Program-made: the position numbers and the translations under genes
Shown: positions 346 through 45,604 of the stretch, piece by piece
How the letters are laid out: the number at the start of each line of letters is the position of its first letter
Numbering within the stretch: the stretch's first letter is position 1
Notes under the pieces: generated by a model
Databases searched by the model: none
The model's input: the letters and a program-made list of their open reading frames with translations, nothing else
Told to the model about the DNA's origin: nothing
NCBI GenBank assembly: GCA_964016885.1
Contig: OZ024741.1
Coordinates: forward strand, 295,926,001-295,990,000
DNA length: 64,000 bases
Direction: 5' to 3'
Source of the DNA: Eledone cirrhosa
Taxonomy: Eukaryota

Positions 346-1204
346 TATCGAAGGACGATTTCAGGGGATTTTGAGTCAAAAAAGTAAATAGAAGCAACAG
401 ACTTGGAAAGAATCCTGAAATCTGACCACCGTTTCGAGATAAATTTCAGCTGTAAATACTAAATACTAAATCCTTGCATCAATTGTTCTAAAGTGAGATG
501 TCGAAAGTATTCAGAGATAGCAGTAAACAGTTCAAGTTGTATTGAGTTCCCGAAGATATCCCACGTAACATAACAACTGCTCGATATAAATAACTTAACG
601 AAAATCTAGAAGAGAGACATTTTATTTTTCAGCATCAGAAAATACTTCAACCACACCCCCCAACAATTATTGATCCTCAATAAAGCCCATATGAGATCGA
701 CTTATACAGTGGCGGACTGGGTCTAGAAATATTGGTTGCCAGGAGATGAAGGGGGCCCACCTACATATAGAATGTTATCATTTAATTTTTATAATGAATA
801 AATAACATTTTTATAAAATACATAAGTGGAAACAAAACAGTGCAATCAAATTTTTGCGGAAAAATATCTTACCTTCTCCAATAAAAAATATAATGTATTT
901 TGCGAAATCCAGTGACTTTCAATAATATATGTGTGCGCGCGCGCGCGTGTGTGTATCTATCTATCTATCTATCTATCTCTATATCTATCTATCTATCTAT
1001 CTTGATAGAGTAAGACACGCTTCGCATCGGCTCCGCTATTCCATCGGGATTTACCCTTACTATTGTAAGTACCGGATAAATTTTTTAGTGCAACACATTT
1101 GGAACACTAACCCCTGTTATTTAGGGAAACATTTTTGCATTTACCCCCTTTTTAGGGGGTAAAATAAATATCTATTTTTGCCGAAAAATTTCTTTCTTGG
1201 CAGC

Positions 1205-3040
1205 ATGGCGGAAAAGATGGCAGACATGTCTGCCATTAGCTCTGCCACGCCCCCCAAGTCTGAAGAACAAAAAATAATTACAACAAAATTAGACATTGAA
1301 ACAAACAAACAAAATGAAAAAACAAATGTTAAGGAAAATGAGCAAACAGAAAACAAACAAACAGAAAATAATACAAATAACGACAGGGCAACTTTCGCCC
1401 AGAAAACAAAACAATCCATTACATACACACCAATTGACCTAACTGCCGCCAGAGAAAAACTGGCCGAAGCAAAGAAACACATTGTTTTGGGGGAGAACGG
1501 AATGTTTTCCATTAACTCCCCCCCAGAATTCAAGAAAGCCAGAGCAGAAAACACAGTTCTATACAGAACTATACTGAACCAGACAAGAAAGCCAGCACAG
1601 CCCAGCCAAATGGAAATAGAGTTAGTCCTAAAAGACTATATGAAGAATATTCTCTTCATACGAAAGGACCGACTCTATGGCAGCATTTCGGTCCTAACAA
1701 GAGACAAAGAAACGGCGGAGAAGCTTTCCCTAAGCCCACTCTCGTCGACAACATATAGCTTCTATCCCTCCTACATGGGTAGAAGAACACAGAGAGTAAA
1801 AGTAAAAACAATGCTGCCCACAATGGACTTCTGGTGGGCTATTGCTGGCTTCATTGATATGGGCGAAGACACTATGCTGTCAATGGGGAAGGCAACTGGA
1901 GATGCGTTCCTGGGAATGGGCCTCGACATACTAGTCCAAATGAGGCCCGAAAGAATAGCACAAATCCCGGATCGCATCTGGCTGGATGACCTTACCCCAA
2001 TAGACATAATTGTAGAGGGGAGAAGACCAGCATGCTATTTATGCATGGAAAGGGGACACGTTAAGGCTAACTGCCCGAAACGTATCCCCCAAAAAGGACT
2101 ATTGCCCACACCCACCACAAACAGTACACCAGCACCACCCACCTCCAAAAATACACTAATACCACACACAGCAAACAAAATACAGACACCACCAACCACA
2201 AACACAACACAAACATCACCACCACCAGCACCAAACACAAGCACGACACAAAAATCACCACCACCAACCACAACACAAACATCACCACCACCATCACCAA
2301 CCACAAGCACGACACAAACATTACCACCACCACCACCACAAAACCCATTCCAAACAAATAATAAAAAAAACAGTAACAAATCTACCCCTCCCGCAAAAAA
2401 AAAACAACCACACAACACGTCCCTCCCACCTAGCGCTGAAGAGTTTCCCCCAACTTCTGAAGAAGAAGGAGGAGAAGCCTTCAGACAAGTTAAAAGAAAA
2501 AAAAGAAAACACACACCCAGCACACCACAAATAACCCACACACAAACACCAACTCCAATCAAAAACACCCCACCCTCAACAAACAAAAATAAATCTGCGC
2601 CTCCCCTCTCCGAAACATTGACAGCATCACAAAAAAAGACGTTGCAATACACATATATAAATAAAGAAAACAAAAAACTGGTTAAATTAATAAACAATAA
2701 CCCTATGGTGCAGACCGAAGGGCCAAACTTTATCTCAACAGAGAACTTCACCCATTTAAAAATGATAAAGGTCCCTCTGGACCTTTATCGTTCCTTAAAA
2801 GAACAATTTAGACGGGACGTGAGCCCCCCCTGTTTAAAACCGTTGAATCGCGTCCTCTTGAAAGATTTCCCCATAACCGCCCCTCTCCCTGACACAACTC
2901 CAAATACCCCAACCCCACCACACACGTGTACCCCCACACCACCACAAAGCATCCCTCCACCCAACACACCTGATGCCATGGAAATTACGCAACCCGGAGA
3001 GGTAAGTGCTTTTCTTTCTTCACTTTCAACACCAAAATAG
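1205..3040 (+). CDS. Tx1 ORF1p (gag-like nucleic-acid-binding protein with CCHC knuckle, P/T-rich linker and C-terminal domain)
   Basis: Uninterrupted ORF from ATG 1205; knuckle CYLCMERGHVKANC preceded by IIVEGRRP; homologous to the ORF1 remnants at 26.4-26.7 kb and 40.1-41.9 kb. Confidence 0.85.
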   Translation: MAEKMADMSAISSATPPKSEEQKIITTKLDIETNKQNEKTNVKENEQTENKQTENNTNNDRATFAQKTKQSITYTPIDLTAAREKLAEAKKHIVLGENGMFSINSPPEFKKARAENTVLYRTILNQTRKPAQPSQMEIELVLKDYMKNILFIRKDRLYGSISVLTRDKETAEKLSLSPLSSTTYSFYPSYMGRRTQRVKVKTMLPTMDFWWAIAGFIDMGEDTMLSMGKATGDAFLGMGLDILVQMRPERIAQIPDRIWLDDLTPIDIIVEGRRPACYLCMERGHVKANCPKRIPQKGLLPTPTTNSTPAPPTSKNTLIPHTANKIQTPPTTNTTQTSPPPAPNTSTTQKSPPPTTTQTSPPPSPTTSTTQTLPPPPPQNPFQTNNKKNSNKSTPPAKKKQPHNTSLPPSAEEFPPTSEEEGGEAFRQVKRKKRKHTPSTPQITHTQTPTPIKNTPPSTNKNKSAPPLSETLTASQKKTLQYTYINKENKKLVKLINNNPMVQTEGPNFISTENFTHLKMIKVPLDLYRSLKEQFRRDVSPPCLKPLNRVLLKDFPITAPLPDTTPNTPTPPHTCTPTPPQSIPPPNTPDAMEITQPGEVSAFLSSLSTPK

Positions 3041-6000
3041 ATCAATTGAGAGTTGGCTGTTTGAACGCGCGTGGCCTGGGCTCAGCTTGGAAGCAAGCAA
3101 AGCTTCTAAGTGACCTCAGGTCACAAAGTATAGATGTGATGGTTGTTTGCGAGAGTCGGATCAGCAGCGTGAGACAGCTGGCGCCCGCCTTCGATGACTT
3201 TGAGATGCACGCATCTCTCTGTCAACCCGGAGGCGGGGGGGGGGGAGTTGCCGTACTGCTGGATAAACGTCTGACTCTCGACGTACAGATTGTTCACTCG
3301 GACCCGGGGGGTCGATTACTGGTGCTGGACGTCGGAGGCGGTGAAGGCGGGGCTTTCAGACTGGTCGGTCTTTATGCTCCCTTCGGGGCGGAAAGAGCCG
3401 ACTTCTTCCAACGTCTGGAGACTTTTCTAGGAACGTCGCGTTCCCTGCTTTTAGTGGGGGACTGGAATGGAATCCTAGATGCGCGTTGGGACTATGCAGG
3501 GGCATGTCCCGATAGAGGGGGGTGTAGCAGCCTCAAGGGGTTACTCGATCGATTCGACCTGGTCGATAGATTTCGACTAGATTGTCCAACTGCGCCAACC
3601 TGGACCTGGGCAAACCGCAGTGGACAATCTAGATCGTACCTAGATAGGTTTTTGGTTAGCAGTAAGGATAGGGACGTATTTAGTTGTCCAGAACTGATCA
3701 TGGTTGGCTATTCAGATCACAAATTAGTGACCTGCGTGGTCAACCTTGATAGAACGCATAGACAGGGTCCCGGTTACTGGAAGATGAACTTGTCCTTACC
3801 GACAAAGAAAGATTACAGAAACCGGATTAGTAGCTTAGTTAAGATGCGGTTGACGGGAGCGATCGTCAACAGTAGGTGGTGGATATCTCTAAAGAGAGAG
3901 ATTAGAGTAAGTTCGATAGGTTACAGTAAGGAACTAGCGGCGAATAGAAATAGGAGGGAAAGGGAGTTAACAGATAAACTAGAAGAGGCGATTAGGAGCG
4001 GAGACGTAGCCAGAGTGTTAGCGACGAGAACGGCATTGAGCCAGTTCTTTGACGCGAAGCACGAAGGCTGCGTTGTCCGAAGTAAAATACGTGCTTTAGG
4101 AAACGAGGGGACCAAAGCTGTTAGCTGGGCCCGCGTGACAGAAGCCAAGAGTGGGATTAAATCCACCATTCGGTCTTTGCGAGACCAGGATGGACGGGTG
4201 ATCCTTGAACCTGAGCGAATGTGCGAGACCTTTCAAAGGCACTTTGCTCGACTGTTCGGAGGTGGCGGGGGGCCGGACGGGGATGTGGACTTCGGTCCAT
4301 ACCTCGACGGTCTACCGCGTCTTTCGAGCGGCGAAGCGGAGTGCTGCGAAAGGCCAATCACAGCCACTGAAATCGGGGAAGCGCTCAGCCAATGCAGCAG
4401 ACGCAAATCCCCGGGTCTCGATGGTCTACCATACGAACTTTATTTAGCTATGCCGGTCTTGTTCTCCGAACTCCTCGAGGCTGTCTATTGCAACTGGCAA
4501 CAGAACGGGAGAATTCCCTGTTCTGTGACCAAGGGCGTGGTCACGCTAGTGAGGAAGGACGAGAGCAAGGGGGACGACTTAAGTAACTTTAGGCCCATAA
4601 CTCTGCTGAATGCAGAGTTACAGATTTTGGCCAAGGTGTTGGCGAAGAGGTTGGCGCTTGTGGTGGGTGGTTTGGTGGGAGACGCGCAGACATGCGCTAT
4701 CCCGTCCAGGTCCATTCACGACAACCTCCACCTCATGCGATACATCATAGAGAGGGTTGGCTACGAACCCGGCTTTGGTGGGGCCCTGATCAACTTGGAT
4801 CAATCTAAGGCGTTCGATAGGGTCGACCATGGTTACCTGGATGCGGTGCTAGCGGCGGCGGGCTTCGGACCCGTTTTCAGGGGCTGGATTTCTGCCATGC
4901 ACAGTGGCAACATCTACTCTAGGATTAAAGTAAACGGCTACCTCTCGGAGCCGTTTCAAATCACCCGATCCATCAGACAGGGGTGCCCCCTCTCCTCCCT
5001 TCTGTACGTATTGACTCTCGAGCCACTGCTGCGGAAGTTGGAGTTGCTGCGGGGCATACCCCTGGAACCGGGATTGCACAAAGCGGTCTCGGCCTATGCC
5101 GACGACGTAACAGTAATGGTGGCGGACGCCTCGGAAATCGGGGCGATCGCCACCCTACTGGAGGAATACGAAAGGCTGACGGGGGCTAAGCTGAACCAGG
5201 ACAAGTCAGTCGGTTTGCAACTCGGAACGTGGAGGGGCAAACCGATGCCGTTAGACGATGTCGTCGGGCGGTGGACGGAGGGCCCGGTGAAGCTGCTCGG
5301 GGTCTGGTTCGGACCGGACCTCCAGGTGGAGAAGAATTGGGGCGAGGTGACGAGCAGGGTGTTTGCGCTGACCCAGAAGTGGGCCAAGTGCAAACTATCA
5401 CTGAAAGGTCGGGCGGAGGTGACGAACGCTTACATAGCGTCCGTCATCTACTACCGCCTGACCGTCGTGCCTTGCCCCAAGGAAAAGCTCACCATCATGG
5501 AACGCATGCTCTTCCAGTTCCTCTGGAAGAAGCGGCCTCCCATGGTGAGGAGATCCATCTGCTGCCAGCACCCTTCGAAAGGAGGGCTGGGTATGCCGTG
5601 GCTGTTGATGCGTAGGCACGCATTGAGGCTACGGCATCTACAGGTATTCCTCAACGGTCAGCCGGTGTGGGCCCCGTTTGTGAGGCGAGCCTTCCCACAG
5701 CTCGTCTCGCTCACCGAACTGCAATCCTGGGTGAAGCAAAGACCGAGAAAACTGGGCAACTGGCACACCGAGTGTGCCCAGGCGCTCACGGCTATTTGGC
5801 AAGCGGACCCGACTGTCAGTGGAGAATCCACCTCGACATTCTATAGAGGGTTGGTGGCTAGCAGGGGCGACGACACCCTTGGAGAGTCGCTAGGCATGGA
5901 GGAAGACGAACTGGCCAGCCTGTTCGGTAGAACTTTTGGCCCGGGACCCATGGACAACTTCCAGAGGTCCCTAGCCTGGCAGTGTTACCGGGGGGCTCTG

Positions 6001-6477
6001 CCCGTTCGAGAAAAGCTCTACAGACACGGGCGCCCGGGCAGGGATCCCGCGAAAAAGATCTGTCCCAGATGCGTGCGCGACGAGGAAACCGTTGCGCATG
6101 CACTGGTACACTGCCCGGGCGTTGCCGATCTGTGGGGCTACGTCGAACGACTGCTGTTGCGTGTGGCGCCGATTCGATTAACCGCCGAGTCTGTGGTGAA
6201 CATCAAGCCGCCTCCTCCCTTCAGAAATGAAGCAGAGGCGGTCTTTCTGTGCGTAATAGCCATGATGAAAGAGGTTGTGTGGTGGACGCGCCTGAAAGGT
6301 CTGAGGTCGGGTGACTTTCTCTCCGGCCATCACCTGGTTTACTTCTTCCGATACCACTTCGGAAGAAGAATCAGGATGGAGAGAGAAGTGCTTGGTCCCA
6401 GACAGTTTTATGAAAGGTGGGTGAAAGAAGCGAGAATGGCCCGTGTAAATGGGCCTTCTCTCTACATTGTTCTGTAG
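3037..6477 (+). CDS. Tx1 ORF2p: APE endonuclease, reverse transcriptase, C-terminal Cys/His zinc finger
   Basis: Intact frame of about 1143 aa; motifs LNARGL, VGDWNG, YLDRF, SDHK, KSPGLDGL, FRPITLLN, DQSKAFDRVDH, RQGCPLS, YADD, CPRC-x8-HALVHC. No ATG at the start; ATA at 3037 aligns with the ATG of the 41956 relative. Confidence 0.92.
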   Translation: MDQLRVGCLNARGLGSAWKQAKLLSDLRSQSIDVMVVCESRISSVRQLAPAFDDFEMHASLCQPGGGGGGVAVLLDKRLTLDVQIVHSDPGGRLLVLDVGGGEGGAFRLVGLYAPFGAERADFFQRLETFLGTSRSLLLVGDWNGILDARWDYAGACPDRGGCSSLKGLLDRFDLVDRFRLDCPTAPTWTWANRSGQSRSYLDRFLVSSKDRDVFSCPELIMVGYSDHKLVTCVVNLDRTHRQGPGYWKMNLSLPTKKDYRNRISSLVKMRLTGAIVNSRWWISLKREIRVSSIGYSKELAANRNRRERELTDKLEEAIRSGDVARVLATRTALSQFFDAKHEGCVVRSKIRALGNEGTKAVSWARVTEAKSGIKSTIRSLRDQDGRVILEPERMCETFQRHFARLFGGGGGPDGDVDFGPYLDGLPRLSSGEAECCERPITATEIGEALSQCSRRKSPGLDGLPYELYLAMPVLFSELLEAVYCNWQQNGRIPCSVTKGVVTLVRKDESKGDDLSNFRPITLLNAELQILAKVLAKRLALVVGGLVGDAQTCAIPSRSIHDNLHLMRYIIERVGYEPGFGGALINLDQSKAFDRVDHGYLDAVLAAAGFGPVFRGWISAMHSGNIYSRIKVNGYLSEPFQITRSIRQGCPLSSLLYVLTLEPLLRKLELLRGIPLEPGLHKAVSAYADDVTVMVADASEIGAIATLLEEYERLTGAKLNQDKSVGLQLGTWRGKPMPLDDVVGRWTEGPVKLLGVWFGPDLQVEKNWGEVTSRVFALTQKWAKCKLSLKGRAEVTNAYIASVIYYRLTVVPCPKEKLTIMERMLFQFLWKKRPPMVRRSICCQHPSKGGLGMPWLLMRRHALRLRHLQVFLNGQPVWAPFVRRAFPQLVSLTELQSWVKQRPRKLGNWHTECAQALTAIWQADPTVSGESTSTFYRGLVASRGDDTLGESLGMEEDELASLFGRTFGPGPMDNFQRSLAWQCYRGALPVREKLYRHGRPGRDPAKKICPRCVRDEETVAHALVHCPGVADLWGYVERLLLRVAPIRLTAESVVNIKPPPPFRNEAEAVFLCVIAMMKEVVWWTRLKGLRSGDFLSGHHLVYFFRYHFGRRIRMEREVLGPRQFYERWVKEARMARVNGPSLYIVL

Positions 6478-6755
6478 GTGAAGAAGTGAAGAGGAAAGGG
6501 GGAGCGCCTCCTCTCTGGGCTTCCCCCGCGAAAAGAGTTGCACACTTTTCGGGGGTATGTGCAATCCCCAACACGCCCCCTCCCTTTTGAGGACTTTTAT
6601 TGTTATATTATTATTGTTATTCCTTTTTTCTTTACTCGATTTATGTAAACTCCCCCACTGTGTAAATGTCCCCTTCTTTTGTGCCCTCGTGGCAAATAAA
6701 TAGAAATTTATCTATCTATCTATCTATCTATTTATCTATCTATCTATAAAAAACA

Positions 6756-7429
6756 GATGCGTGTGCGACGAGGAAACCGTTGCACACGCATTGGTACACT
6801 GCTCGGGCGTAGCCGATCTGTGGGGCTATGTCGAACAACTGCTGTCAAGGGTGGGACCGATCCGGTTGACCACCGAGTCTATTGTAATGATCAAGCCGCC
6901 TCCCCCCTTCAAAGATGAAGCAGAGGCGGTGTTTCTGTGCGTAATAGCCATGGCGAAAGAGGTTGTATGGTGGACGCGTCTGAAAGGACTGAGGTCAGGC
7001 ACCTTTCTCTCTGGCCAACAACTGGTCCGTTTCTTCCGATATCATTTCGGAAGAAGGATCAGGATGGAGAGAGAGGTGCTGCACCCCAGCCGTTTCTATG
7101 AAAGATGGGTGAAAGTGGCGAGAATGGCCCGTGTGAATGGGCCTTCACTCTACATCAGACTATAGGTGAGGAAGATGAAAGACCAAGGGAGCACCCCTTC
7201 TCTGTGCTCCTGAGGAGAAGGGTTGCACACTTTTTTCGGGGGTGTGTGCGACCCCCCAAGGCGCCTCCTCTCTATTGAGGATTTTGTTAAAAATTTTATT
7301 TTTTGTTATATCTTATTTTATTTTTATATTTTGTTATTGCCTCCTCCTTATTGAGGACGCCTTTTTGTGTAAACTCCCCCCTTTGTACTTGTCCCACTTT
7401 TGATGCCCTAGTGGCAAATAAAAGAAACA
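6756..7429 (+). mobile_element. 5'-truncated Tx1 copy B with 15-bp target-site duplication
   Basis: ORF2 C-terminus (CDEETVAHALVHC...GPSLYIRL*) plus 3'UTR ending AATAAAAGAAAC; TATCTATAAAAAACA is duplicated at 6741-6755 and 7430-7444. Confidence 0.92.
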
Positions 7430-7519
7430 TATCTATAAAAAACAACCTTCACCACTAATTGATTTGACAGATGTCTTTAATCCATAGATACCTAATAGTA
7501 TTTGGTCAGTAGTTCGTGT

Positions 7520-10921: not shown

Positions 10922-11944
10922 ATTTGTATATGTGTGTATATGTGTTTATGTGCCTCTATGAGTCTGAATCGGTTTGTCTGTCTTAGTGTTGGTGTGTGAG
11001 TAATAGACATGGATTTATGAGAATGTAGTCATATATATATATTTATGTGTGTGCGTACGTGTGTGTGTGTGTACATGTGCGTGTTTGTGTGTATGTGTGT
11101 GTGTGTGTCTTTATATATCTTTATATATATATGATATATTTATTAAAATAACAAATTAAAGTTTAAGCAAAGAATCGCTGCTTTCACCCTTAACGGGATC
11201 TTCTGAAACTAACAAAGTCAATCTGTAAACGCAGAACTGGATATTTCAAAGAACGTTGCAACCGGAGGAAGACAGGAAGACGATACTTTAGTTCGTGGAA
11301 ACGTTCGCTGGCAAAGAACGGGAAAAAACGAATATAACACGTCATTATTTGGAGCGGTGAAAAACAATTACGCGCAAAGACAGAACCACGTTTATGGTAT
11401 AAGAGAGGTCGTAGACTAATGTTCTCTCAAAGGTGGTTCATAGAGACGTTCTCTAGCAATGAACGGAAAAAACGAGGATAATACGTCATATGTGGATCGT
11501 GGAGAACAATAGCACGCAAAGTCAAAACCACGTAAATGGTATAGCAGAAGTCGTAGACTAAACTTCTAACTAGGAGACCGAATGAATCTCCGATACAGAG
11601 TTAAGAACAAAGTAAATAAATACAATACAGAAGTAATAGAAATAAATAAATAAATACACGCAAACAAATACGTACATACACAAGCATACGCAAAACACTT
11701 ACCATAGGTATACAAAACCACGCACATATAAATATGTGTGTGTGTATGCGTGTATACAAATAAATAAATAATTATATAAACGTATATAAATAAATAAATA
11801 CGTATATAACAAGCGCACACACATACCTACATGTAAATACACGAATGTTCGGAGACGTAGGTCAACCAAAACATGAAGTACACATATACACACACCCACA
11901 TACGTACGAACCAGCAAACTCACACAGACGCAAAACTCCCGTAT

Positions 11945-13388
11945 TGGTTCAACGGCATATGTAACAAGGAACATTGCCGTTTTATCCAATTCGACATCAA
12001 CAATTACTACTCCTCCATCACTTTACCACTTCTCCTTAGAGCTATCAATTTCGCTAAAACACTCACAGTGGTTAAGGATTTCGAAGTTGATGTCATCCTC
12101 AATGCCCGTAAGTCGGTGATTAATTTCGACGACTCTATTTGGATTAAAAAATCCAATAGTACCCCATTCGACGTGAGTATGGGCGCCAGTGATTCCGCGG
12201 TGGTTACTGATCTTATCGGCCTATTCCTTCTTTTCTCTATCAAGGACGAATTCCCCAACGCGGGCGGTGCTTTGTACCGTGACGATGGTCTTTTGACCAT
12301 GACTAAGTGCGGACCTCGTGCTTGCGACAGGTTCAGAAAAGAACTCACAGCCTTCTTTAAAGGCTTCAACCTCTCTATACAGGTTGAGGCCAATCTCTCT
12401 GTCGTTAATTACCTCGACGTTACCCTCAATTTATTGAATGGGTTGTATTACCCGTATAGAAAGCCGAATGATACGCTTAATTACATAAGTAAGCATTCCA
12501 ACCATCCTGCCAGCATATCCAAGAACCTGGTAAGAAACGTTTCGTTGAGGCTTTCCCGTCTTTCCACCAACGAGCGTATTTTCAACGACTATTCCACTTA
12601 TTACAATGAAGATCTTGCTCGAATTGGATTTGTCGATAAGGTAGCATATACAGAGTACGAAAATAGACCTAGAAGAAATAGATCCCGTCGCATTTGTTGG
12701 TATAACCCACCATATAATATGGAGGTGGCCACACCATTAGCTAAGATCTTTCTTTCCCTTATTACGAAGCATTTTCCCCCTACACATAAATATAGTAAAC
12801 ATTTTTAATAGAAATACTATTAAAATTTCTTACTCTACGACTCCTAACCTTGCACATAACATCACAGCTTCAAATTTAGCTAAACTACCTAGCCGTAGGA
12901 ACACGTGCAACCCTGTAGTTAGTACTAACTGTAATTGTAGGAATCGGGTTGATTGCCCCCTATCCGGGAAATGCCTTTCTAGTAACATTGTCTACAAATG
13001 TAAGGTTGTAACACCCACGTCCCGTAAGGCCTACATTGGGTTAACCGCCAATAGATTCAAGCAGCGTCTTTACATGCATACCCATTCTTTTCGTTACCCT
13101 CTAAGAAGGAATATGACGTCACTTTCAGCTTATATCTGGAGTCTAAAAGACAACCACACCCAATATAAGTTACACTGGGAGATCCTAGCTAGGGCTAGAT
13201 CGTATAACGGAAATAAAAGACCATGTGACCTCTGCGCCGCTGAGGCCCTGGAAATACTCTACGCCACAGACCACATCTTAAACAAAAAATCTGAGGCAAT
13301 TTCGGCTTGTAAACATAAATTGCACAAAACTTTCTTGTATTACAGCCCCACGATAGTACGATCTATACGTGGATATTTTACGTCTTGA
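11945..13388 (+). pseudogene. PLE RT-GIY-YIG ORF (5'-truncated, one frameshift near 12800)
   Basis: FIQFDINNYYSSI, FDVSMGA, LYRDDG, YLDVTL, SNHP, WYNPPY; after the frameshift FNRNTIKISYS, CNCRNRVDCPLSGKC, IVYKC..AYIGLT..FKQRLYMH, CDLC, CKH. Confidence 0.88.
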
Positions 13389-15188: not shown

Positions 15189-15794
15189 AAGAATGAGAAA
15201 TAAGATAGATTGAGGGGACGGGTGGGTTGGAATTGGAAAAAATGTCTTTAGATAGAAATAACAGGTCCATTCATGTTGACATCTCTTTGAAAACTGTTGA
15301 TGCTGGCGTTTTGTGTATGATTTACCATTTATGTTATGTTGTTTATCAATGTGTAGAACTGGTGATTCCGGCTAGAAAACGATGATGCAAAAGATTAAAT
15401 CACTCGACGTTATGCAAATCCCCATCAGAGATGTGTTGTCATGTGTCCAGTACTGGAACGAAGTTAAATATTCATTAAAAATAACAGAAGGTCGGATTGG
15501 AAACAGGTGAGTTTGTTTTTATTGGCAGCATGACTCTTCCAAAGTATAACAATATATGCATATATATATATCAGTGGCGGTGTAACTAGGGGAACCAGGA
15601 GGGCCATAACCCCTCCAATAATTATATTTTCCCCCAAAAACTACCAAAACACACATCTATTTGTATATGCGCTACAATTTATGTACATGTTATGTAGAGA
15701 CTGATGGGAGAGATAGATATAGATATATAGAGAGGGAGAGTTTGGTGGTAATTGATATAGAGAGGGAAGCTGGGAGAGTGTGTTGTATATTAGA

Positions 15795-18700
15795 TATAGA
15801 GAGGGGGAGAGTTTGGTGTTACATGATAGAGAGGGGATTGGAAAAGAGTTCCGTGTAGTAGATATAGAGAGGGGGAGAGTTTGGTGTTACATGATAGAGA
15901 GGGGATTGGAAAAGAGTTCCGTGTAGTAGATATAGAGAGGGAGAGTGTTTGGTGTTACATGGTAGAGAGGGGATTGGAAAAGAGTTCCGTGTAGTAGATA
16001 TAGAGAGGGAGAGTGTTTGGTGTTACATGGTAGAGAGGGGATTAGAAAAGAGTTCCGTGTAGTAGATATAGAGAGGGGGGGTGTTTGGTGTTACATGATA
16101 GAGAGGGGATTGGAATAGAGTTCCGTGTAGTAGATATAGAGAGGGGGAGTGTTTGGTGTTACATGATAGAGAGGGGATTGGAATAGAGTTCCGTGTAGTA
16201 GATATAGAGAGGGGGAGTGTTTGGTGTTACATGATAGAGAGGGGATTGGAAAAGAGTTCCGTGTAGTAGATATAGAGAGGGGGAGTGTTTGGTGTTACAT
16301 GATAGAGAGGGGATTGGAAAAGAGTTCCGTGTAGTAGATATAGAGAGGGAGAGTGTTTGGTGTTACATGATAGAGAGGGGATTGGAAAAGAGTTCCGTGT
16401 AGTAGATATAGAGAGGGAGAGTGTTTGGTGTTACATGGTAGAGAGGGGATTGGAAAAGAGTTTCGTGTAGTAGATATAGAGAGGGGGAGTGTTTGGTGTT
16501 ACATGATAGAGAGGGGATTGGAAAAGAGTTCCGTGTAGTAGATATAGAGAGGGAGAGTGTTTGGTGTTACATGATAGAGAGGGGATTGGAAAAGAGTTCC
16601 GTGTAGTAGATATAGAGAGGGAGAGTGTTTGGTGTTACATGGTAGAGAGGGGATTGGAAAAGAGTTTCGTGTAGTAGATATAGAGAGGGGGAGTGTTTGG
16701 TGTTACATGGTAGAGAGGGGATTGGAAAAGAGTTCCGTGTAGTAGATATAGAGAGGGGGAGTGTTTGGTGTTACATGATAGAGAGGGGATTGGAAAAGAG
16801 TTCCGTGTAGTAGATATAGAGAGGGAGAGTGTTTGGTGTTACATGATAGAGAGGGGATTGGAAAAGAGTTCCGTGTAGTAGATATAGAGAGGGGGAGTGT
16901 TTGGTGTTACATGATAGAGAGGGGATTGGAAAAGAGTTCCGTGTAGTAGATATAGAGAGGGGGAGTGTTTGGTGTTACATGATAGGGAGGGGATTGGAAA
17001 AGAGTTCCGTGTAGTAGATATAGAGAGGGAGAGTGTTTGGTGTTACATGATAGAGAGGGGATTGGAAAAGAGTTCCGTGTAGTAGTTATAGAGAGAGGGA
17101 GTGTTTGGTGTTACATGATAGGGAGGGGATTGGAAAAGAGTTCCGTGTAGTAGATATAGAGAGGGGGAGTGTTTGGTGTTACATGATAGGGAGGGGATTG
17201 GAAAAGAGTTCCGTGTAGTAGATATAGAGAGGGGGAGTGTTTGGTGTTACATGATAGAGAGGGGATTGGAAAAGAGTTCCGTGTAGTAGATATAGAGAGA
17301 GGGGGTGTTTGGTGTTACATGATAGAGAGGGGATTGGAATAGAGTTCCGTGTAGTAGATATAGAGAGGGAGAGTGTTTGGTGTTACATGGTAGAGAGGGG
17401 ATTGGAAAAGAGTTCCGTGTAGTAGATATAGAGAGGGGGAGTGTTTGGTGTTACATGGTAGAGAGGGGATTAGAAAAGAGTTCCGTGTAGTAGATATAGA
17501 GAGGGAGAGTGTTTGGTGTTACATGGTAGAGAGGGGATTGGAAAAGAGTTCCGTGTAGTAGATATAGAGAGGGGGGTGTTTGGTGTTACATGGTAGAGAG
17601 GGGATTAGAAAAGAGTTCCGTGTAGTAGATATAGAGAGGGAGAGTGTTTGGTGTTACATGGTAGAGAGGGGATTAGAAAAGAGTTCCGTGTAGTAGATAT
17701 AGAGAGGGGAAGTGTTTGGTGTTACATGATAGAGGGGGGATTGGAATAGAGTTCCGTGTAGTAGATATAGAGAGGGGGAGTGTTTGGTGTTACATGATAG
17801 AGAGGGGATTGGAAAAGAGTTCCGTGTAGTAGATATAGAGAGGGAGAGTGTTTGGTGTTACATGATAGAGAGGGGATTGGAAAAGAGTTCCGTGTAGTAG
17901 ATATAGAGAGGGGGAGTGTTTGGTGTTACATGATTGAGAGGGGATTGGAAAAGAGTTCCGTGTAGTAGATATAGAGAGGGGGAGTGTTTGGTGTTACATG
18001 ATTGAGAGGGGATTGGAATAGAGTTCCGTGTAGTAGATATAGAGAGGGGGAGTGTTTGGTGTTACATGATTGAGAGGGGATTGGAAAAGAGTTCCGTGTA
18101 GTAGATATAGAGAGGGGGAGTGTTTGGTGTTACATGGTAGAGAGGGGATTGGAAAAGAGTTCCGTGTAGTAGATATAGAGAGAGGGGGTGTTTGGTGTTA
18201 CATGATAGAGAGGGGATTGGAAAAGAGTTCCGTGTAGTAGATATAGAGAGGGGAAGTGTTTGGTGTTACATGATAGAGAGGGGATTGGAAAAGAGTTCCG
18301 TGTAGTAGATATAGAGAGGGGGAGTGTTTGGTGTTACATGATAGAGAGGGGATTGGAAAAGAGTTCCGTGTAGTAGATATAGAGAGGGAGAGTGTTTGGT
18401 GTTACATGGTAGAGAGGGGATTGGAAAAGAGTTTCGTGTAGTAGATATAGAGAGAGGGGGAGTGTTTGGTGTTACATGGTAGAGAGGGGATTGGAAAAGA
18501 GTTCCGTGTAGTAGATATAGAGAGGGGAAGTGTTTGGTGTTACATGATAGAGAGGGGATTGGAAAAGAGTTCCGTGTAGTAGATATAGAGAGGGAGAGTG
18601 TTTGGCGTTACATGATGGAGGGGGGATTGGAAAAGAGTTCCGTGTAGTAGATATAGAGAGGGGGAGTGTTTGGTGTTACATGATAGAGAGGGGATTGGAA

Positions 18701-23794: not shown

Positions 23795-26677
23795 TTTCTT
23801 TATTAGCCACAAGGGCACAAAAGAAGGGGACAAGTACAATGGGGGAAGTTTACATTCAATAAAAGCGTGTAAAACACAGATGAAAATTAAAGAAAAACAA
23901 TCGATTTTCCCCAATAGGGAGGAGACATTAACTATGGGTGACACATACCCCCGAAAAAAAATGTGCAACCCTCATCTCCAGGAGTACGAAGAGTGAGCAC
24001 TCCTTTCCTCTCTTCCTCCTCTTCCTCAACCTACAGGCTGATATAGAGAGAAGGCCCATTCACTCAGGCCATTCTCGCCATTTTCACCCACCTTTCATAA
24101 AACTTGCTGGGGTACAGCACCTCTCTCTCCATCCTGATTCTTCTTCCAAAGTGGTATTTGAAAAAAAGAATCAGTTGTTGGCCAGAGAGAAAGGTTTCTG
24201 CCCTCAGCCCATTCAAACTCGTCCACCATACAACCTCTTTCACCATTGCCATCAAACAGAGGAAAACCGCCTCTCCTTCGTTTTTGAGGGAGGGTGGCGG
24301 TTTGATCATGACAATGGACTCGATGGTCAACCGGATTGGTCCCACCTGTGACAATAGTCGTTCTACATAGCCCCACAGGTCGGCAACTCCTGGGCAGTGT
24401 ACGAATGCGTGCGCGACGGTTTCCTCGTCGCGCACGCATCTCGGACAGACCTTTTTTGAAGGGTCCCTGACTGGGCGCCCGTGTCTATAGAACTAGTCTC
24501 GAAATGGTAGAGCTCTTCGATAGCACTGCCAGGCCAGGGACTTTTGGAAGTTGTCCATCGGTCCCGGGCGGAAGGTCCTACCGAACAGACTGGCCAGTTT
24601 GTCTTCCTCTACGCTTAGAGTTTCTCCGAGAGCGTCGTCGCACTTGCTGCGGACCAACCCTCTATAGAATGACGAAGTGGAGTCTCCACTGATCGCCGAG
24701 TCCGCCTGCCAGAGGGCTGTGAGCGCCTGAGCACATTCGATGTGCCAGTCGCCCACTTTCTTCGGTCTTTTCTTGACCCAGGACTGCAACTCCGTTAGTG
24801 AGAAGAACTGTGGGAAGAATCGCCTCACGAACGGGGCCCACACCGGTTGTCCGGTGAGGAATACGTGGAGGTGCCGCAGACTGAGCGCGTGTTTGCGATT
24901 CGTCAGCCACGGCACCCCCAGCCCTCCGTTAGAAGGGTGTTGGATCTTCTCACCAAAGGAGCCCGCTTCTTCCAAAGGAATTGGAAGAGCGCGCGCTCCA
25001 TTTGGTGAGTGTTTTGGCTGGACAAGGCACGACGGTCAAGCGGTAGTAAATGACGGACGCTATAAAAGTGTTCGCCACCTCCGCTCGACCTTTCAAGGAT
25101 AGTTTACATTCGGTCCACTTCTGGGTGAGTGCAAACACCTTGGCCGTCACCTCGTTCCAGTTCTTCTCCACCTGGAGGTCCGGACCAAACCAGACCCCGA
25201 GCAGCTTCACCGGTCCTTCCGTCCAGCGTCCGACGACGCCATCGGAAGGCATCGGTCTGCCTCTCCACGATCCGAGTTGCAAACCGACGGACTTGTTCCG
25301 GTTCAGCTTCGCTCCTGTCAACTTCTCGTATTCCTTCAGTAAGGTGCCGACCTCCTCGATTTGCGAGGTGCTCAACACCATTACTGTCACGTCGTCGGCG
25401 TAGGCCGACGCCGCTTTCCGCAGTCCCGGTTCCAGAGAGATGCCCTGCAATAGCTCCAACTTCCGCAGTAGTGGCTCAAGAGTCAGTACATACAGAAGAG
25501 AGGAGAGAGGGCATCCCTGTCGGATGGATCGCGTGATTTGGAACGGCTCCGAGAGGTAGCCGTTCACCTTGACCCTTGAGTAGATGTTGCTGCTGTGCAT
25601 TGCAGCAATCCAGCCCCTGAACACGGGTCCGAAGCCTGCCGCCTCGAGCACATCTGCTTAGGTTTAAGGATCACACGTCCATCCTGGTCCTTCAAAGACC
25701 GAATCGTGGACTTGTTTCCACTTTTTGCCTCTGTCACTCGGGCCCAGCTAACAGCTTTGGCTCCCTCGTTACCCAGAGCACGTATTTTACTCCTGACAAC
25801 GCAGCCCTCGTGCTTCGAATCAAAGAACTTGTCCAAGACCGTTCTTGACGCCAGCACGCTGGCCACATTACCACTCCTAAACGCCTCTTCTACTTTATCT
25901 ACCAATTCCTTTTCAGTCCTATTCCTATCTAATGCTAATTCCTGACTAAAACCTATTGCTTCTATTCTCACTGCCCTCTTATGAGAGTACCACCATCTGT
26001 TGTTGACAATGGCCCCCGTCAAGTGTTGTTTAACTAGAGTGCTAATCCGTCTACTGTATGCTTTGCATGTCGGTAACGACAAGTTCAGTTTCCAGTAGCC
26101 GGGTCCCTGTCTATGGGTTCTATCAAGGTTGACTATGAAGATCACTAGTTTGTGATCTGAATAGACAACCATGAGCAATTGTGGACAGCTTAGCATGTCC
26201 CTATCCTTATTTCTAGCTAGAACTCTATCTAGGTACGATCTAGATGTTCCGCTGATATTAGTCCACGTCCCCAGTGGCACAGTCGGAAAATCTAGTCGAT
26301 ATCTATCGGCCAGGTCAAATCGGCCGATTAACTGTTTGAGGCTGTTGCACCCCCTCTATCGGAACATGCTCCCACATAGTTCCATGGGGGTGTTGGATGG
26401 GTTGTCTGGGTGGGTAGTGGCTTTCCGGCGGGGTGAGGAGGGGGTGTCTGGTCGGATGGGTGTGACTTGGGTGGGGGTACCTGGGGTGTGGAGACATTTG
26501 AAGAGGACGCGGTTGATTGGTTTCACGCAGGAATTCCCCACGTCCTCTTCAAATGTTTCTTTTAGGGACCTGTAAGTTCCTATAGGGAACCTAATCAGTT
26601 TTAGGTTCGTTTTTTTTTGTTTTTGTTGGAGCTATCCAAAGTTTTCCCTTCGGTTTTGACCAAAGGGTTGTTTTTGA
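23795..26677 (-). mobile_element. Tx1 copy C: ORF1 3' part, ORF2 and 3'UTR, with two internal deletions
   Basis: Homologous to copy A; 3' end AATAAAGAAA followed by TATATCTATCT; deletion junctions at about 25650 and 26380; ORF1 remnant NNPLVKTEG...YRSLKETFEEDVGNSCVKPINRVLFK. Confidence 0.9.
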
Positions 26678-40121: not shown

Positions 40122-41921
40122 ATGACTGCAGGTGTTAAAGCCGCCACCACCACCACCACCACTACAGCGACAACAGAAACAAAATTTAAAAAAAAAAAAT
40201 TAACTCATGATATCGAAATGAATTCAACCAAAATTAACTATTCCACACCGAACACCACTGACGCCACCACCACAACAACTGAAACTAAAATTAACAATAG
40301 CAGAAATAACGATAATAACAACAACAACAATGAAATTAAGAAAACTACCCTGAGTTTTGCCAGAGTAGCAAAAACGTTCGAAGCGATTCAGGTAACTCAG
40401 GAAGAATTAGACGAAGCCAAAGGAATGGTAAAGAAAGATGGGTACAGGGTCAACCTCCCCTCCCCCCACCTAATAAAATGGAGCATCGGCGCCTATGCAC
40501 CGTGTCTTATCTGACAATAAACATAAAATCGCGCCGAGTGGAACGGGCATCTGAGTCCCAAATCCAAAAAGCTTTGGGATATGTGTGGGCAAAAAAAACT
40601 CACATCAGACGTGGGCAGAAGTATGGAACAGTGGACGTGTTCTTTGAAACACCATAGGATGCCAGAGAACACTCCATGGCCCCATTAAGAAGTGACGACT
40701 TCACACTCATCCCAAGCTATTGTGACCAGAGACTTGTGAAGATCAGGGTGACCCACGTTCCACCGGCCATCGAAATTCCCTGGCTAATGGCTGCCGTCCT
40801 CGCCGGCATCGAGGCCAACACCAAAATAATAGAAATAGCAAAAGAAAAGCAGGAGAACTGGTCCGGATCTGGGATGGAGCTCCTGATCCAAGCGGACCAT
40901 AAAAGCATTGAAGAGATCCCAGAGGTAATAGACCTCACTGACGGCAGCCACCTCACCGTAATCGTCGAGGGCAGAAGACCTAGGTGTGTCGTTTGTGGTG
41001 AAGGAACCCACCTAAGGGCTTTCTGCCCTCAGGCTAAAAGGTTGAGGCCACCTCTCTTACCCACCCCAGTGACTCAACCATCAACACCACCAGCAGCAAA
41101 AATAGCAGCAACAACTGTAGCAGCAACAACTGTAGCAGCAACAACAGAAGCAACTGTAACAGCAACAACCCCAGCAACAGTAGCAAAACCAACACCACCA
41201 CCACCCAACGCCCCAGAACTAGCACCAGCGCCTACACCATCCACCACGCCACAACAAAAACCAACACCTGTGGAGGATTTTCCACTTCCCGGCTTATCGC
41301 AACTGGAGACAGATTGTGACGACGAGGAGTGAGAAACGGTATCAGGAAAAAAGAAAAAAAAGAAGAAACCAAAAAAGAAAAAATTCTCTTCCTTCCCCCT
41401 CAAAAAACAAAATACAGAGGGAAACAAATAAATTATCGAACAAGAAAGTTAAGACAGATATGCCACCATCCACACCAGCATCACCAACCCCATCACCACA
41501 AACACCAACACCATCACCATCATTAACCCCAACACCACCATCACTAACACCACAAAAGTCAGCAAAAAGCGTAACAGAAACAAACCCACAACAAACGCAA
41601 ACAAAGCAAAACAACCAAAACGATACACACTACACAGCATTAAATTTGAACAACAACCAATTATTACACTACATGCAACACAACACCAGCATCACAGAAA
41701 AAGACTACACAACAACCCAAAAGTTCACACCACCTCCACACATACAAATCACACGCATCACACAGAAAACGTACACGACACTAAAACAAAAATTCCGCAA
41801 AGACATCGGAGACTTCCGACAAACACTCTCCAGGAGGATTGATAAGGACATCCTTCCGGAGTAGGCCACAAGCAGTGAAAAGGATGGACAAACCATCCTT
41901 CCTCTACGAGAAGTAAGGTAA
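40122..41921 (+). pseudogene. Copy E ORF1 (frameshifted)
   Basis: VIVEGRRPRCVVCGEGTHLRAFC knuckle; P/T-rich linker; YTTLKQKFRKDI...LSRRI homologous to copy A; frameshifts near 40460 and 41350, internal TAG at 41862. Confidence 0.8.
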
Positions 41922-41955
41922 GTGGTCTTTCCCATCTTTTCCACTTCGTTTCAAC

Positions 41956-44900
41956 ATGACCTCACTCAGAATAGGCAGCATAAATGCGCGTGGCTTGGGG
42001 TCGTCATGGAAGCAGGGCCACCTGCTCAACGACCTCAGGTCACTAAACATAGATGTAGTGGCCATCAGCGAGACCAGAATCTCCGAAGCACGGGCCTTCG
42101 CACCGATCTTCGGCGGCTACGATGTGTACGCATCTCCCAGCCGTCCTGGATCGGGGGGGAGGAGTTGCTGTGCTTTTTCGGAGAGGTTTGGATCTCGCCA
42201 TACGGGCCATCTTCCTGGACCCAGAAGGTAAGTTGGTGGTGCTAGACGTGACCAGCGGAGACGGGCAAGCTTTCAGGCTAGTGGCCGTCTATGCCCCGAC
42301 AGGAGCAGGGCGGCCTGATTTCTTCCGGCGTCTGGAGACCTTTCTTGGAACGTCCCGCTCTTTAGTGTTAGTGGGCGACTGGAACGGGATCTTAGATGCA
42401 CGCTGGGACTGTGTTGGATTAGCGGATAGGGGCGGAGGGTGCAAGAGCCTCACCAACCTGCTCAGGCGTTTTGAACTGTCTGACAGGTACCGATTAGATT
42501 TCCCGAATGTGTCAATGTGGACTTGGACAAATCGCATAGGGTCATCCAAATCATATCTAGATAGAGTATTTTGTAGAGAAATAGATAGGTCTAGCATAGG
42601 CTGTCCGCAATTCAAGATAGTCAGCTAGACGGACCACAAATTCGTGATCTGTGTACTTGACTTAGATAGGCTTCATAGACGAGGGCCCGGCTACTGGAAG
42701 CTAAGCGCGTCCTTACCAGCGCGCAAGGCCTACAGAGACCGGATTAGCAAACTAGTTAAGCGGGCGTCAACAACAAGTGGTGGTTTGCTCTGAAAAGAGC
42801 ATTTAGAATAGAGTCCATTAGGTTTAGTAAGGCTTTAGCAATAGAGAAAAATAGAGCAGAGGGAGAATTAGTTAGAAAATTAGACGAGGCGCTTAGCAAA
42901 GGCATCGTGATCGACGTGCTTGCGGCGAAATTGGCCCTTGACCAATTCTTCAATGCAAAGCACGAAGGCTGCGTTGTCAGAGCTAGGGTGCGTGCTCTCA
43001 GACACGAGGGGACGAAAGCCGTTCAATGGGCCCGAGTGGCGGAGGCGCATCGTGGCAACAAAGCCACGATCCGGTCTTTGGTGGACCACGACGGGCGCAT
43101 GCTACTGGATCCCGGGCAAATGTGTGAAGCTTTTCAGCGAAACTTCGCTCAGTTGTTCGGGGGCAGCGGCGGGCCGGATCGAGGGATGGACTTCAGTGTC
43201 TACCTCGACGGACTGCCGCGGCTCTCGGCCACTGAGGCGGAGTGTTGCGAAAAGCCGATAACATCCGCTGGAGGCAATGACTAGCTGCACAAGGGGTAAA
43301 TCGCCTGGTTTGGATGGTCTGCCCTATGAACTTTACGTACAGATGCCAGACTTATTCGGAGGCCTCTTGGCGGACGTCTACTGCAACTGGCAACAGAACG
43401 GGAGAATTCCCAGCTCTGTGAGCCGAGGAGCTGTGGTGCTGCTGAGAAAGGATCCGAACAAGGGGGATAACATAGATAATTTTAGGCCCATAACTCTGCT
43501 AAACACAGAGTTCAAGATTTTGGCCAAGGTGCTAGCAAAGAGGTTGGCGCTTGTCGTTGGTGGTCTGGTGGGAGAGGCGCAGACATGCGCCATTCCCGAC
43601 AGATCCATCCACGACAACCTCCACCTCATGCGATACATCGTAGAAAGGGTAGCTAGGGAACCTGGCACGGGTGGGTCCTTGATCAATTTAGATCAGTCAA
43701 AAGCTTTCGATAGGGTCGACCATCGTTACCTAGCGGCAGTCCTGAGGGCGGCTGGCTTTGGGCCTGTCTTCAGAGGCTGGATCGCTGCCATGCACAGCGA
43801 CATCTGCTCTGTGGTGAGAGTGAACGGTCACCTTTCGGAACCGTTCAACATCATGCGCTCGGTCCGCCAAGGATGTCCCTTCTCGTCCCTCTTGTACGTA
43901 TTGACTCTCGAGCCATTACTGCACAAACTGGAGACGTTGAGGGGGGGGGGGGGGTCCCCGCGCGAACTAGGATGCGGAAGATCCGTGTCAGCATATGCGG
44001 ACGATGTCACCGTAGTGGTGTCGAACGCCAAACACATCGAGGCGATCGGCACTAAACTAAGAGAATACGAAGCGGTGACAGGAGCAATGATCAACCAGGA
44101 AAAGTCAGTCGGCCTGCAGTTCGGCACCTGGAGAGGCAGGTCCATGCCGTCCAACAGCGTCGTCGGGTGCTGGACGGACGGACCAGTTAAATTGCTCGGG
44201 GTCTGGTTCGGTCCAGATCTCCAGACGGACAAAAACTGGGACGAGGTGACGAGCAGGGTGGCTTCTCTCACCCGGAAATGGGCCGAGAGGAAGCTATCCC
44301 TGAAAGGTCGAGCGGAGGTGGCTAACGCGTATATCGCGTCCATCATCTACTACCGCCTGACCGTTGTACCTTGTCCTAAGCCCCACCTGACTGCGCTGGA
44401 GCGTTTGCTCTTTCGCTTTTTGTGGAAGGGACGCGCTCCGATGGTCAGGAGGTCCTTCTGCTGTCAACACCCGCTACGTGGAGGGCTGGGCATGCCGTGG
44501 CTGATGATGCGCAGACACGCGCTCAGGCTACGACATCTCCACCTCTTCCTCGACGGTGATCAGGTGTGGTCGCCGTTTGCTAGACACGTCTTTCCCCAGC
44601 TCGTCTCCTTGACGGAGCTGCAGTCCTGGGTCAAGCGAAGACCGAGAGGGAGCGCTTGGAGACTGGAATGTCTTCAGGCGCTCCCAGCCCTCGACCAATC
44701 GGGCAATGTGATCGGTGAAAACTCCACCTTGGCGTTCTATAGAGGATTAGTGGAGGGGAAGAGCGACGACGTACTTGGAGAAACTCTAGGCGTCGAAGAA
44801 AATCAACTAGCCAATCTCTTCGGACGGACTTTCGGGCCGGGGCCTATGGACAACTTCCAGAAATCCCTGGCCTGGCGGTGCTACCGGGGTGCTTTGCCAG

Positions 44901-45361
44901 TTCGGGATAAACTCTACAGGCATGGAGGTGCCGTCAGCCGGGCATGTCCGAGATGCGCGCAGGACGACGAAAACGTCCTGCACGCACTCGTCCAGTGTCC
45001 GAGCATTGCTGACTTGTGGGTTTATGTCGAACACCTGCTGTCACGTGTAGGACGGATCCAGCTATCATCTGAGTCCATCGTGAGGATTGCCCCGCCCTCC
45101 TCCTTTAGCCGGGAAGGGCAGGCAGTTTTTATCTGTCTGGTGGCCATGGCGAAAGAGATAGTATGGTGGACACATTTGAAAGGGCTGAAGACGAGCACTT
45201 ACCTCTTCGGTGATGCCCTGATTAACCTTTTCAAATTTCATTTGAAAAGGAAAATCAGGGTAGAGAGGGAAGTGCTCTCTTCCCAGCATTTTGTTGAAAG
45301 ATGAGTGAGAGAAGCAAGTATGACCCGAGTGAATGGGCCTACTCTGAGTATGTGTCTGTAA
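41956..45361 (+). pseudogene. Copy E ORF2 (APE-RT-zinc finger), disrupted
   Basis: MTSLRIGSINARGL, VGDWNG, KSPGLDGL, YADD, CPRC...HALVQC; several frameshifts and stops (about 42155, 42626, 42765, 43275, 45302). Confidence 0.9.
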
Positions 45362-45604
45362 ATTAAAGGTGGACAACTGGGAGAGGGCACTTGCCCTAGT
45401 GGTCAGGGTCACTGTGGTCTTTTAATGGGCTTTCTCCACAAATGTCCCTCGGAAGTCTCCCCCCTATTGGGGAATTTTTCTTTGTTATTTTATTACATCC
45501 TCTGTTTTTTTTACACGCAGAAATGCCCATTTGTACCGTCCTGTATTGTCCTGTACTGTCCTTAATGTCTACTTTATGTAAACCCTTGTGGTTAATAAAG
45601 AAAA

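Follow-up and report, generated by a model that had tools for sequence, protein, structure and literature searches.

A constrained 5' splice-site motif at the ORF1 stop of a Tx1-like LINE clade in Eledone cirrhosa and a possible whole-ORF2 intron

In a window of 64,000 nucleotides (nt) from Eledone cirrhosa (assembly GCA_964016885.1, contig OZ024741.1, positions 295,926,001 to 295,990,000 of the forward strand), we investigated a full-length, young long interspersed element (LINE) of the L1 group, referred to as copy A, which carries ORF1 and ORF2, its two open reading frames. Near the end of its ORF1 lies a perfect 5' splice-site (donor) motif, GAG|GTAAGT (the bar marks the predicted splice point), and related families carry the same kind of motif on or beside the ORF1 stop codon. 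As judged by sequence comparison, this donor signal is real and constrained, and is kept by selection at the ORF1 stop. The sequence-only reading of the window had proposed that the whole of ORF2 is an intron, running from this donor to an acceptor on the ORF2 stop codon. The donor half of that proposal proved stronger than claimed and the acceptor half weak, with no spliced copy found, and the genomic data neither establish nor exclude the intron. We regard the signal in this LINE clade as real and apparently undescribed, and the whole-ORF2 intron as plausible but unproven.

The donor motif and its conservation

Copy A was 99.0% identical to another genomic copy across 5,760 nt. When 3.0 gigabases of genome were scanned for copies, the 15-mer that precedes the donor in its family (family A) was found at 379 places, and an ORF2 N-terminal pattern built to exclude family A yielded 6,784 further places. 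Visual inspection divided eighty longer stretches among the subfamilies A, E, F, G, H, I, J and K. Among loci picked by the ORF2 N-terminus alone, 27 of 30 carried GGTAAGT ahead of ORF2, and the remaining three showed one GTGAGT, one CAG|GTAATT and one deletion. Within family A, GTAAGT was present at 360 of the 379 places; five of the other 19 were fetched, and all were unspliced and read GTAGGT. The donor lay 27-52 nt upstream of ORF2 in 14 of 14 subfamily representatives. Twelve of these had been chosen regardless of the donor; the other two, F4 and H, were drawn by a donor-containing pattern, and two H copies selected without that pattern also carry it. The alignment of the 14 representatives is anchored on the motif and has five columns that are invariant by construction, so that what counts is the presence of the motif in each. 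Both donors of the sequence-only reading were confirmed at their coordinates, with the GT at 3002 in copy A and at 41918 in copy E, a further LINE copy in the window whose ORF2 ATG is at 41956. Its description of a donor before ORF2 also holds, with the correction that the motif of copy A is inside ORF1 coding sequence and that the ORF2 "start" there is an ATA codon at 3037.

The position of the motif relative to the ORF1 frame differed among families. It falls in phase 0 in A, in phase 1 (spelling Gly-Lys-stop) in G and J, and in phase 2 (Arg-stop) in E, F, H and I; in copy E the TAA at +2 to +4 of the donor is itself the ORF1 stop of that family. Because the donor occurs in three ORF1 phases, the motif is not merely the stop codon. 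Moreover, the ORF1 proteins of the other families are 23-45% identical to that of family A, and their C-termini are unalignable. Splice-site scores throughout are based on rough metazoan weights that are untrained on this genome. By these scores the donor ranked first or second among the roughly 180-310 GT sites of each element (10 of 10 representatives), and in the 80 nt ahead of ORF2 it exceeded dinucleotide shuffles at p ≤0.016 in all 10 in-genome representatives. Families E1, G and I have one more strong donor inside ORF2, about 270 nt from its start.

The motif was also found in a sister lineage, S1, identified by scanning a prokaryotic genome collection. S1 comes from one metagenome-assembled bin of another sample, evidently eukaryotic DNA. 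This bin, filed as uncultured Arenicella (contigs CAXXMW0100000xx), holds many head-to-tail LINE arrays with a period of about 6.5-6.9 kb, which are evidently host DNA inside a bacterial metagenome-assembled genome. The S1 ORF2 is 41% identical to that of copy A, and AAG|GTAAGT directly follows the S1 ORF1 stop, 13 nt ahead of the ORF2 ATG, in 79 of 79 contexts (overlapping loci, with some copies counted twice). Another S1 donor, 17 nt past the ORF2 stop, was intact in the 47 of 47 contexts seen (overlapping loci). That the donor is conserved, as the sequence-only reading had it, was thus borne out across subfamilies, in three phases and in a 41%-identical lineage.

The three phases, the unalignable flanks, the 41%-identical lineage and the shuffle tests together place the donor beyond chance. 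They also make it barely credible that the motif is neutral and persists through shared ancestry and the ORF1 stop codon, even though TAA gives three motif letters in the phase-2 families and fourfold-degenerate ORF2 sites fall short of full saturation. Identity at these sites is only 51-59% when the A/F/H clade is compared with the E/G/J clades, which counts in favour of constraint on the donor; 77 of the 263 sites do not vary in six deep representatives. S1 has the very same 8-mer. Farther out, we scored 25 distant L1/Tx1-like loci (24 of 80 with an ORF2 N-terminus, together with L306; mostly 21-31% identical to the query), and the donor score ahead of ORF2 was below 3 in 24 of them and 4.5 at best, compared with 5.4-8.8 in this clade. 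What is robust in this clade is thus the presence of a strong U1-type site on a stop codon or shortly after it. A search of Rfam with four sister-lineage loci gave no match.

The proximity of the motif to ORF2 suggests another reading, in which the motif and the pyrimidine tract behind it would form a termination-reinitiation element for ORF2 and the likeness to a donor would be incidental. The motif is always ≤52 nt from the ORF2 start, on or beside the ORF1 stop, and the ORF2 of family A has no AUG start: its opening ATA overlaps the ORF1 TAG (in the 28 of 30 family A loci inspected), and the first in-frame ATG of copy A is at 3139. AUG-independent translation of human L1 ORF2 is described in the accessible part of PMC11485995. 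However, the conserved letters fit the U1-pairing consensus, including the exon-side AG and the GT, and the variants GTAGGT and GTAATT remain donors. The spacing between motif and start ranges from 13 to 52 nt, and the motif also occurs past the ORF2 stop, a place with no further frame for reinitiation. We consider a reinitiation element fairly improbable.

Candidate acceptors and the search for spliced copies

The acceptors quoted in the sequence-only reading are all present in the sequence: TAG|G at 6477, 7165 and 24031 (minus strand), and AAAG|G at 45368. The last of these does not lie on the stop codon, as had been claimed for copy E; the stop is the TAA at 45359-45361, and the AG ends 7 nt downstream. 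In copy A the stop-codon AG is 220 nt upstream of AATAAA, and after splicing the frame would run to a stop in three codons; it would do so after one codon in J1, after none in G (two phases), and immediately at the GTGA-type ends of F1 and H. A GA-rich run follows the stop-codon AG in the 13 ends shown, which weakly favours an acceptor; we presume that the run in copy A resembles an exonic splicing enhancer.

Taken together, the following results weigh against splicing of ORF2. In F2 and in E, the commonest family, the spliced frame extends for 34-71 codons in most copies or meets no stop within 100. Outside family A the rank of the stop-codon AG was between 7 and 16 in F, H and J, 18 in I and between 38 and 65 in E and G, and a good acceptor near the 3' end is missing from G and J. 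When the last 8 codons were exchanged for synonymous ones, 6-99% of the draws scored as high, in each of the 10 families tested. Likewise, the best 3'-end acceptor was matched by shuffles in 16 of 16 sequences (p 0.09-0.92), including 10 of 10 in-genome representatives (p 0.10-0.92; for a region that begins 30 nt upstream of the ORF2 stop and reaches close to AATAAA). Among the marks of a copia-type arrangement, a conserved donor ending the structural gene was found and a conserved acceptor behind the enzyme gene was not. By these scores no family has an acceptor that exceeds chance, and the conserved acceptor proposed for the ORF2 stop finds no support as a feature under selection, since codon re-draws and shuffles match it although it is top-ranked in A itself.

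Two further candidates were given less weight. The pyrimidines before the ORF2 stop are dictated by the hydrophobic C-terminus, and the standing of this tract as a selected signal was lowered because synonymous re-draws score equally. A 3' untranslated region (3'UTR) acceptor homologous to the copy E site was the best-scoring one in intact E1 and E2 and the second in I, and S1 has an acceptor-like site 254-280 nt into its 3'UTR in 5 of 5 variants scored; the 3'UTR acceptors of E, I, S1 and L303 (a third lineage, described below) were not significant alone (p 0.09-0.59).

The genome was also searched for retrocopies of spliced RNA. At none of the 379 family A places was the 15-mer followed by GT and a letter other than A. 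Junction patterns for families A, F and H gave two matches with the general pattern and seven with the F pattern, all unspliced point or small-deletion mutants, against 1,384 unspliced copies, and the family E junction gave four matches, all unspliced, against 3,293. No join of the family E donor to the 3'UTR or to ORF2 codon 5 was found genome-wide, nor among 100 of 111 matches shown, and family J yielded zero spliced copies, a count without a denominator. Precisely spliced retrocopies therefore totalled zero against about 4,680 unspliced copies, with families G and K outside the search; every genomic copy examined was unspliced, and the spliced copies that would have borne out the sequence-only reading did not appear. 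The form expected of a retrotransposed spliced RNA is that of HAL1 ("half-L1") elements, which comprise ORF1 and the 3' tail without ORF2, and no such copies were found at the predicted junctions in this genome. In contigs on 2955-6590 from four sequencing runs of one study, whose kind is unrecorded, none of the joints shown (15 of 95) connects 3001 to 6478; their depth is genomic-like, so they provide no evidence either way.

The absence of spliced retrocopies counts against the intron because an ORF1-only RNA would keep the 3' tail, and Tx1 elements likely mobilise tail-sharing short interspersed elements in trans, according to the part of PMC4494074 available. It is not decisive, since an RNA without ORF2 needs action in trans and L1 proteins favour their own RNA; in human L1, spliced copies make up about 2% of full-length ones and are dead ends (both from the accessible text of PMC5860796). 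L303 adds a further difficulty. This lineage, known from one locus of the same bin as S1, has no donor before ORF2; its ORF1 stop overlaps the ATG (TAATG), and CAG|GTAAGT lies 43 nt past the ORF2 stop. An ORF1-only model leaves this lone post-ORF2 donor unexplained. S1 and L303 may each have a 3'UTR intron (in L303 at 3490-3680): the candidate donor is the one that follows the ORF2 stop by 17 or 43 nt, and the candidate acceptor is an acceptor-like site a further 145-265 nt downstream.

These observations are relevant to a reading in which the motif is a binding site for the U1 small nuclear ribonucleoprotein (snRNP) without productive splicing. Bound U1 would block premature cleavage and polyadenylation, or govern nuclear retention or 3'-end formation of the 5.7-kb RNA, and the ORF boundary would be the least constrained place for such a site. 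Donors alone beat the null and acceptors never do, there are no spliced retrocopies, L303 lacks a donor ahead of ORF2, and perfect donors occur elsewhere as well, at about 270 nt into ORF2 (E1, G and I) and at 17 nt (S1) or 43 nt (L303) past its stop. Moreover, four AATAAA signals lie within the ORF1 of copy A (at 2360, 2588, 2660 and 2689), 313-642 nt upstream of the donor, and near-full-length frames hold 1-5 of them in ORF1 and 0-1 in ORF2. A splicing-independent U1 role is described for Arabidopsis EVD, whose donor also prevents premature termination of the unspliced RNA (PMC5580714, in the portion available). However, the downstream ORF2 has nearly no canonical poly(A) signal to suppress, and the ORF1-stop position is kept despite a coding cost in A, G and J. 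In addition, a perfect donor upstream of usable AG sites is expected to splice at some rate, which counts against binding alone. We rate U1 binding without splicing, which the sequence-only reading had itself raised as an alternative, as rather unlikely but as the foremost competitor of the splicing model.

With no conserved acceptor within the element, the donor might instead join acceptors outside it, in the next tandem unit or in host exons, giving chimeric ORF1 RNAs. Copies commonly lie head to tail about 5.7 kb apart, and splicing of vertebrate L1 ORF1 exons to host exons is described in the accessible part of a preprint (bioRxiv 10.1101/2024.04.25.591049). This is decidedly improbable, given that the element's own AATAAA is met 220 nt past ORF2, that no such junction was recognised among 100 of 111 family E matches shown, and that it is not evident what the element would gain for the motif to persist from lineage to lineage. 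Very unlikely, too, is a micro-intron of 39-63 nt that would excise the ORF1 stop together with the ORF2 start, link the donor with ORF2 codon 5 at its AG (Arg, AG|A), and yield an in-frame ORF1-ORF2 fusion in the phase-2 families. Families E, F, H and I would keep the frame across this join, the pyrimidine tract could serve as its 3' tract, and an AG stands right ahead of the ATG in H, I and J. Nevertheless, the join shifts the frame in A, as it does in G if the first AG is used; the codon is CGA in family K; and the S1 donor-to-ATG gap is just 13 nt. Such an RNA would encode reverse transcriptase (RT) in cis, yet there were 0 spliced against 3,293 unspliced copies.

Element anatomy and other features of the window

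The features of copy A and of the other copies in the window are collected in Table 1. Copy A has the anatomy of the L1 group, with two ORFs, a poly(A) signal in the 3'UTR, 5'-truncated copies (such as copy B) and, from Pfam and structure matches, an APE endonuclease, an RT and a C-terminal zinc-binding region in ORF2. The Pfam E-values for ORF2 were 3e-12 for Exo_endo_phos, 5e-24 for RVT_1 and 3e-5 for zf-RVT, the last under the curated cut-off, and the closest solved structure was human L1 ORF2p (residues 6-856, E 1.6e-50), with R2 at just 4e-23. The zf-CCHC match in ORF1 (E 0.019) is under cut-off; its residues C277, C280, H285 and C290 are unchanged in 5 of 5 ORF1s. A CCHC zinc knuckle in ORF1 is a feature of the Tx1 clade. 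The label "Tx1" is a provisional one that fits the anatomy; no named Tx1 reference element was among the sequence matches, and a quick tree of relatives holds unnamed relatives only.

Table 1. Coordinates of LINE features in the 64,000-nt window
Feature	Position	Strand	Remarks
Copy A, full-length young L1-group (Tx1-like) LINE	1001..6710, ends approximate	+	(TATC)n on both flanks
ORF1, 611 amino acids (aa)	1205..3040	+	Stop TAG 3038-3040; C-terminal half proline/threonine-rich; weak CCHC zinc knuckle
5' splice-site motif GAG|GTAAGT, GT at 3002	2999..3007	+	Inside ORF1, phase 0
Pyrimidine tract 3' of donor	3008..3027	+	75-90% pyrimidine in 14/14 representatives
ORF2, 1,146 aa	3037..6477	+	APE endonuclease, RT, zf-RVT; stop TAG 6475-6477
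Candidate acceptor CTGTAG|G on ORF2 stop	6456..6478	+	Rank 1 of 263 AG sites in copy A
GA-rich purine run, start of 3'UTR	6478..6505	+	TGA three codons in, in the predicted spliced frame
AATAAA	6695..6700	+	Followed by (TATC)n tail or target
Copy B, a relative truncated at its 5' end, about 82% identical to family A	6754..7430	+	Immediately after copy A; TAG|G at 7165
Copy C, candidate acceptor CTGTAG|GTTGAG with the ORF2 stop	24031..24052	-	TAG|G at 24031
Copy E, donor AAG|GTAAGT, GT at 41918	41915..41923	+	ORF2 ATG at 41956
Copy E, second perfect donor, within ORF2 (Gly-Lys-Leu codons)	42225..42233	+	Strong in G and I too
Copy E, ORF2 stop TAA 45359-45361 and weak AAAG|G	45359..45368	+	Rank 38-63 in E-family copies
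Copy E, T-rich candidate acceptor in 3'UTR, ending ACACGCAG|	45500..45520	+	Not above shuffles

At the ORF1-ORF2 boundary, families F and H, the sisters of A, carry CAACATGG where A has the overlap of ATA and TAG. A start at the ATG at 3139 would remove the N-terminus of the endonuclease in family A, which has about 380 copies and an intact ORF2. Family A ORF2 is possibly a natural case of AUG-independent translation, or possibly relies on a helper family.

At the outer ends, (TATC)n was present on both flanks of copy A and at both ends of two other copies, and tail and target are indistinguishable here; families E, G and I end in (ATT)n instead. Family A copies are frequently arranged head to tail with a spacing of about 5.7 kb (for example C1:18372664 and C1:18378378), which is consistent with insertion into their own (TATC)n tail. 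In their association with microsatellites, (TATC)n for A and (ATT)n tails for E, G and I, these APE- and RT-bearing elements without long terminal repeats (LTRs) resemble the Tx1-clade elements Kibi and Koshi; the latter have other repeat units and another host group, and the accessible text on them mentions no splice signal (PMC4494074). Hairpins are common to the 3'UTRs of copies A (6500-6600), B (7190-7290) and C (23920-24010, minus strand), with some compensatory pairs in the alignment of the three sequences, and are a candidate RT recognition signal.

A protein search with the copy A ORF1 gave no match. A profile search with ORF1 returned 901 relatives, and among the 150 listed Octopus sinensis, O. 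bimaculoides and Argonauta hians are named. Some of the ORF1 proteins end in -GK or -GKS, the spelling of a phase-1 donor (P0066, and P0067 from Argonauta), which is a protein-level hint only. Among the 14 of 901 relatives inspected, as protein without their DNA, none could be tied to a spliced end. The O. sinensis protein XP_036364761.1 ends in -LGKKWKQN; its best match here is 38% and its family is absent, so this end is unreadable against DNA. Viral contigs scanned with P0107 gave no match. In P0133, a 1,041-aa database protein, ORF1-like residues 59-167 stand ahead of a host protein of WD40-type appearance, and P0133 is possibly a chimeric gene model.

Elsewhere in the window, two overlapping ORFs at 11861-13388 presumably encode a Penelope-type RT and a GIY-YIG endonuclease, as judged by eye from their motifs; they had no Pfam match at E 0.01. 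A tandem array at 15720-21692 consists of 87.7 copies of a 68-bp unit with 96% matches.

A model for an ORF1-only RNA and its implications

LINEs are usually thought to translate both proteins from a single unspliced bicistronic RNA. We propose, tentatively and with not quite even confidence, that the donor is an alternative 5' splice site giving an ORF1-only mRNA, and that its acceptor varies and lies on the ORF2 stop or beyond it. In this model, in which we infer U1 binding, splicing, the acceptor and the purpose, U1 would bind the donor on or beside the ORF1 stop, and splicing of some of the transcripts would take out all of ORF2 and leave an ORF1-only mRNA. The unspliced RNA would provide the ORF2 protein (ORF2p) and the template that is copied into the genome. 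There would probably be more than one acceptor site. In copy A, for which the junction of the sequence-only reading is the best candidate, 3001 would be joined to 6478, giving a protein that ends QPGE-VKK before the stop; families E and I would use a 3'UTR acceptor, as would the sister lineage. The stop codon of the ORF1-only mRNA would be in the last exon or, in S1, ahead of the donor. The predicted purpose is a high ratio of ORF1 protein (ORF1p) to ORF2p, comparable to the role of the gag-only RNA in Drosophila copia.

In copia, the whole of pol is removed by splicing to produce that gag-only RNA (Yoshioka 1990, as cited in the available part of PMC5580714). As in copia, an intron of about 3 kb over the whole enzyme region would leave a structural-protein RNA that runs to the 3' end of the element. 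Copia, however, is a single-ORF LTR element in which splicing has been demonstrated, whereas the elements studied here are bicistronic and non-LTR, with an ORF1 that has its own stop, and their splicing is predicted. A conserved U1-type donor beside the end of the structural gene is also found, according to the accessible portions of PMC5580714 and PMC3735527, in the shGAG RNA of Arabidopsis EVD and other Ty1/copia elements and in barley BARE1; these differ in being plant LTR elements with short introns (averaging about 300 nt in Arabidopsis) that are coupled to premature polyadenylation. Human L1 and its SpIREs likewise represent LINE RNA with splice sites (PMC5860796, in part). In that case the donor is in the 5'UTR and promoter or ORF1 sequence is removed, whereas here the donor is at the ORF1 end and spliced copies number 0. 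Among the articles returned from open-licence literature, screened by titles and the openings of abstracts, none describes a conserved donor at the ORF1 end or an ORF2-spanning intron in a LINE. A paper on O. vulgaris repeats (PMC13282606) reports 13 recently active L1-Tx1 families, and its main text is without the terms "splic", "intron" and "ORF1".

On a broader and more speculative view, which we hold to be possible though short of probable, a widespread L1/Tx1-like lineage, present in octopods and in one or more other hosts, would use regulated spliceosomal splicing in its life cycle, the spliced RNA would be kept from retrotransposition, and the second donor of S1 would compete for the 3'UTR acceptor.

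Even without splicing, the more than 4,600 perfect donors that stand behind ORF1 genome-wide could seed chimeric transcripts of ORF1 and host sequence. A donor kept by selection across 41%-identical lineages implies that these LINEs make purposeful use of the spliceosome or of U1 snRNP. If an ORF1-only mRNA is made, it would be a second route to setting the ORF1p:ORF2p ratio, reached in convergence with copia, and a switch through which splicing in particular tissues could permit or prevent transposition. If the proposal is true, this would be a LINE with separate RNA pools for its structural protein and for its replication, as in copia.

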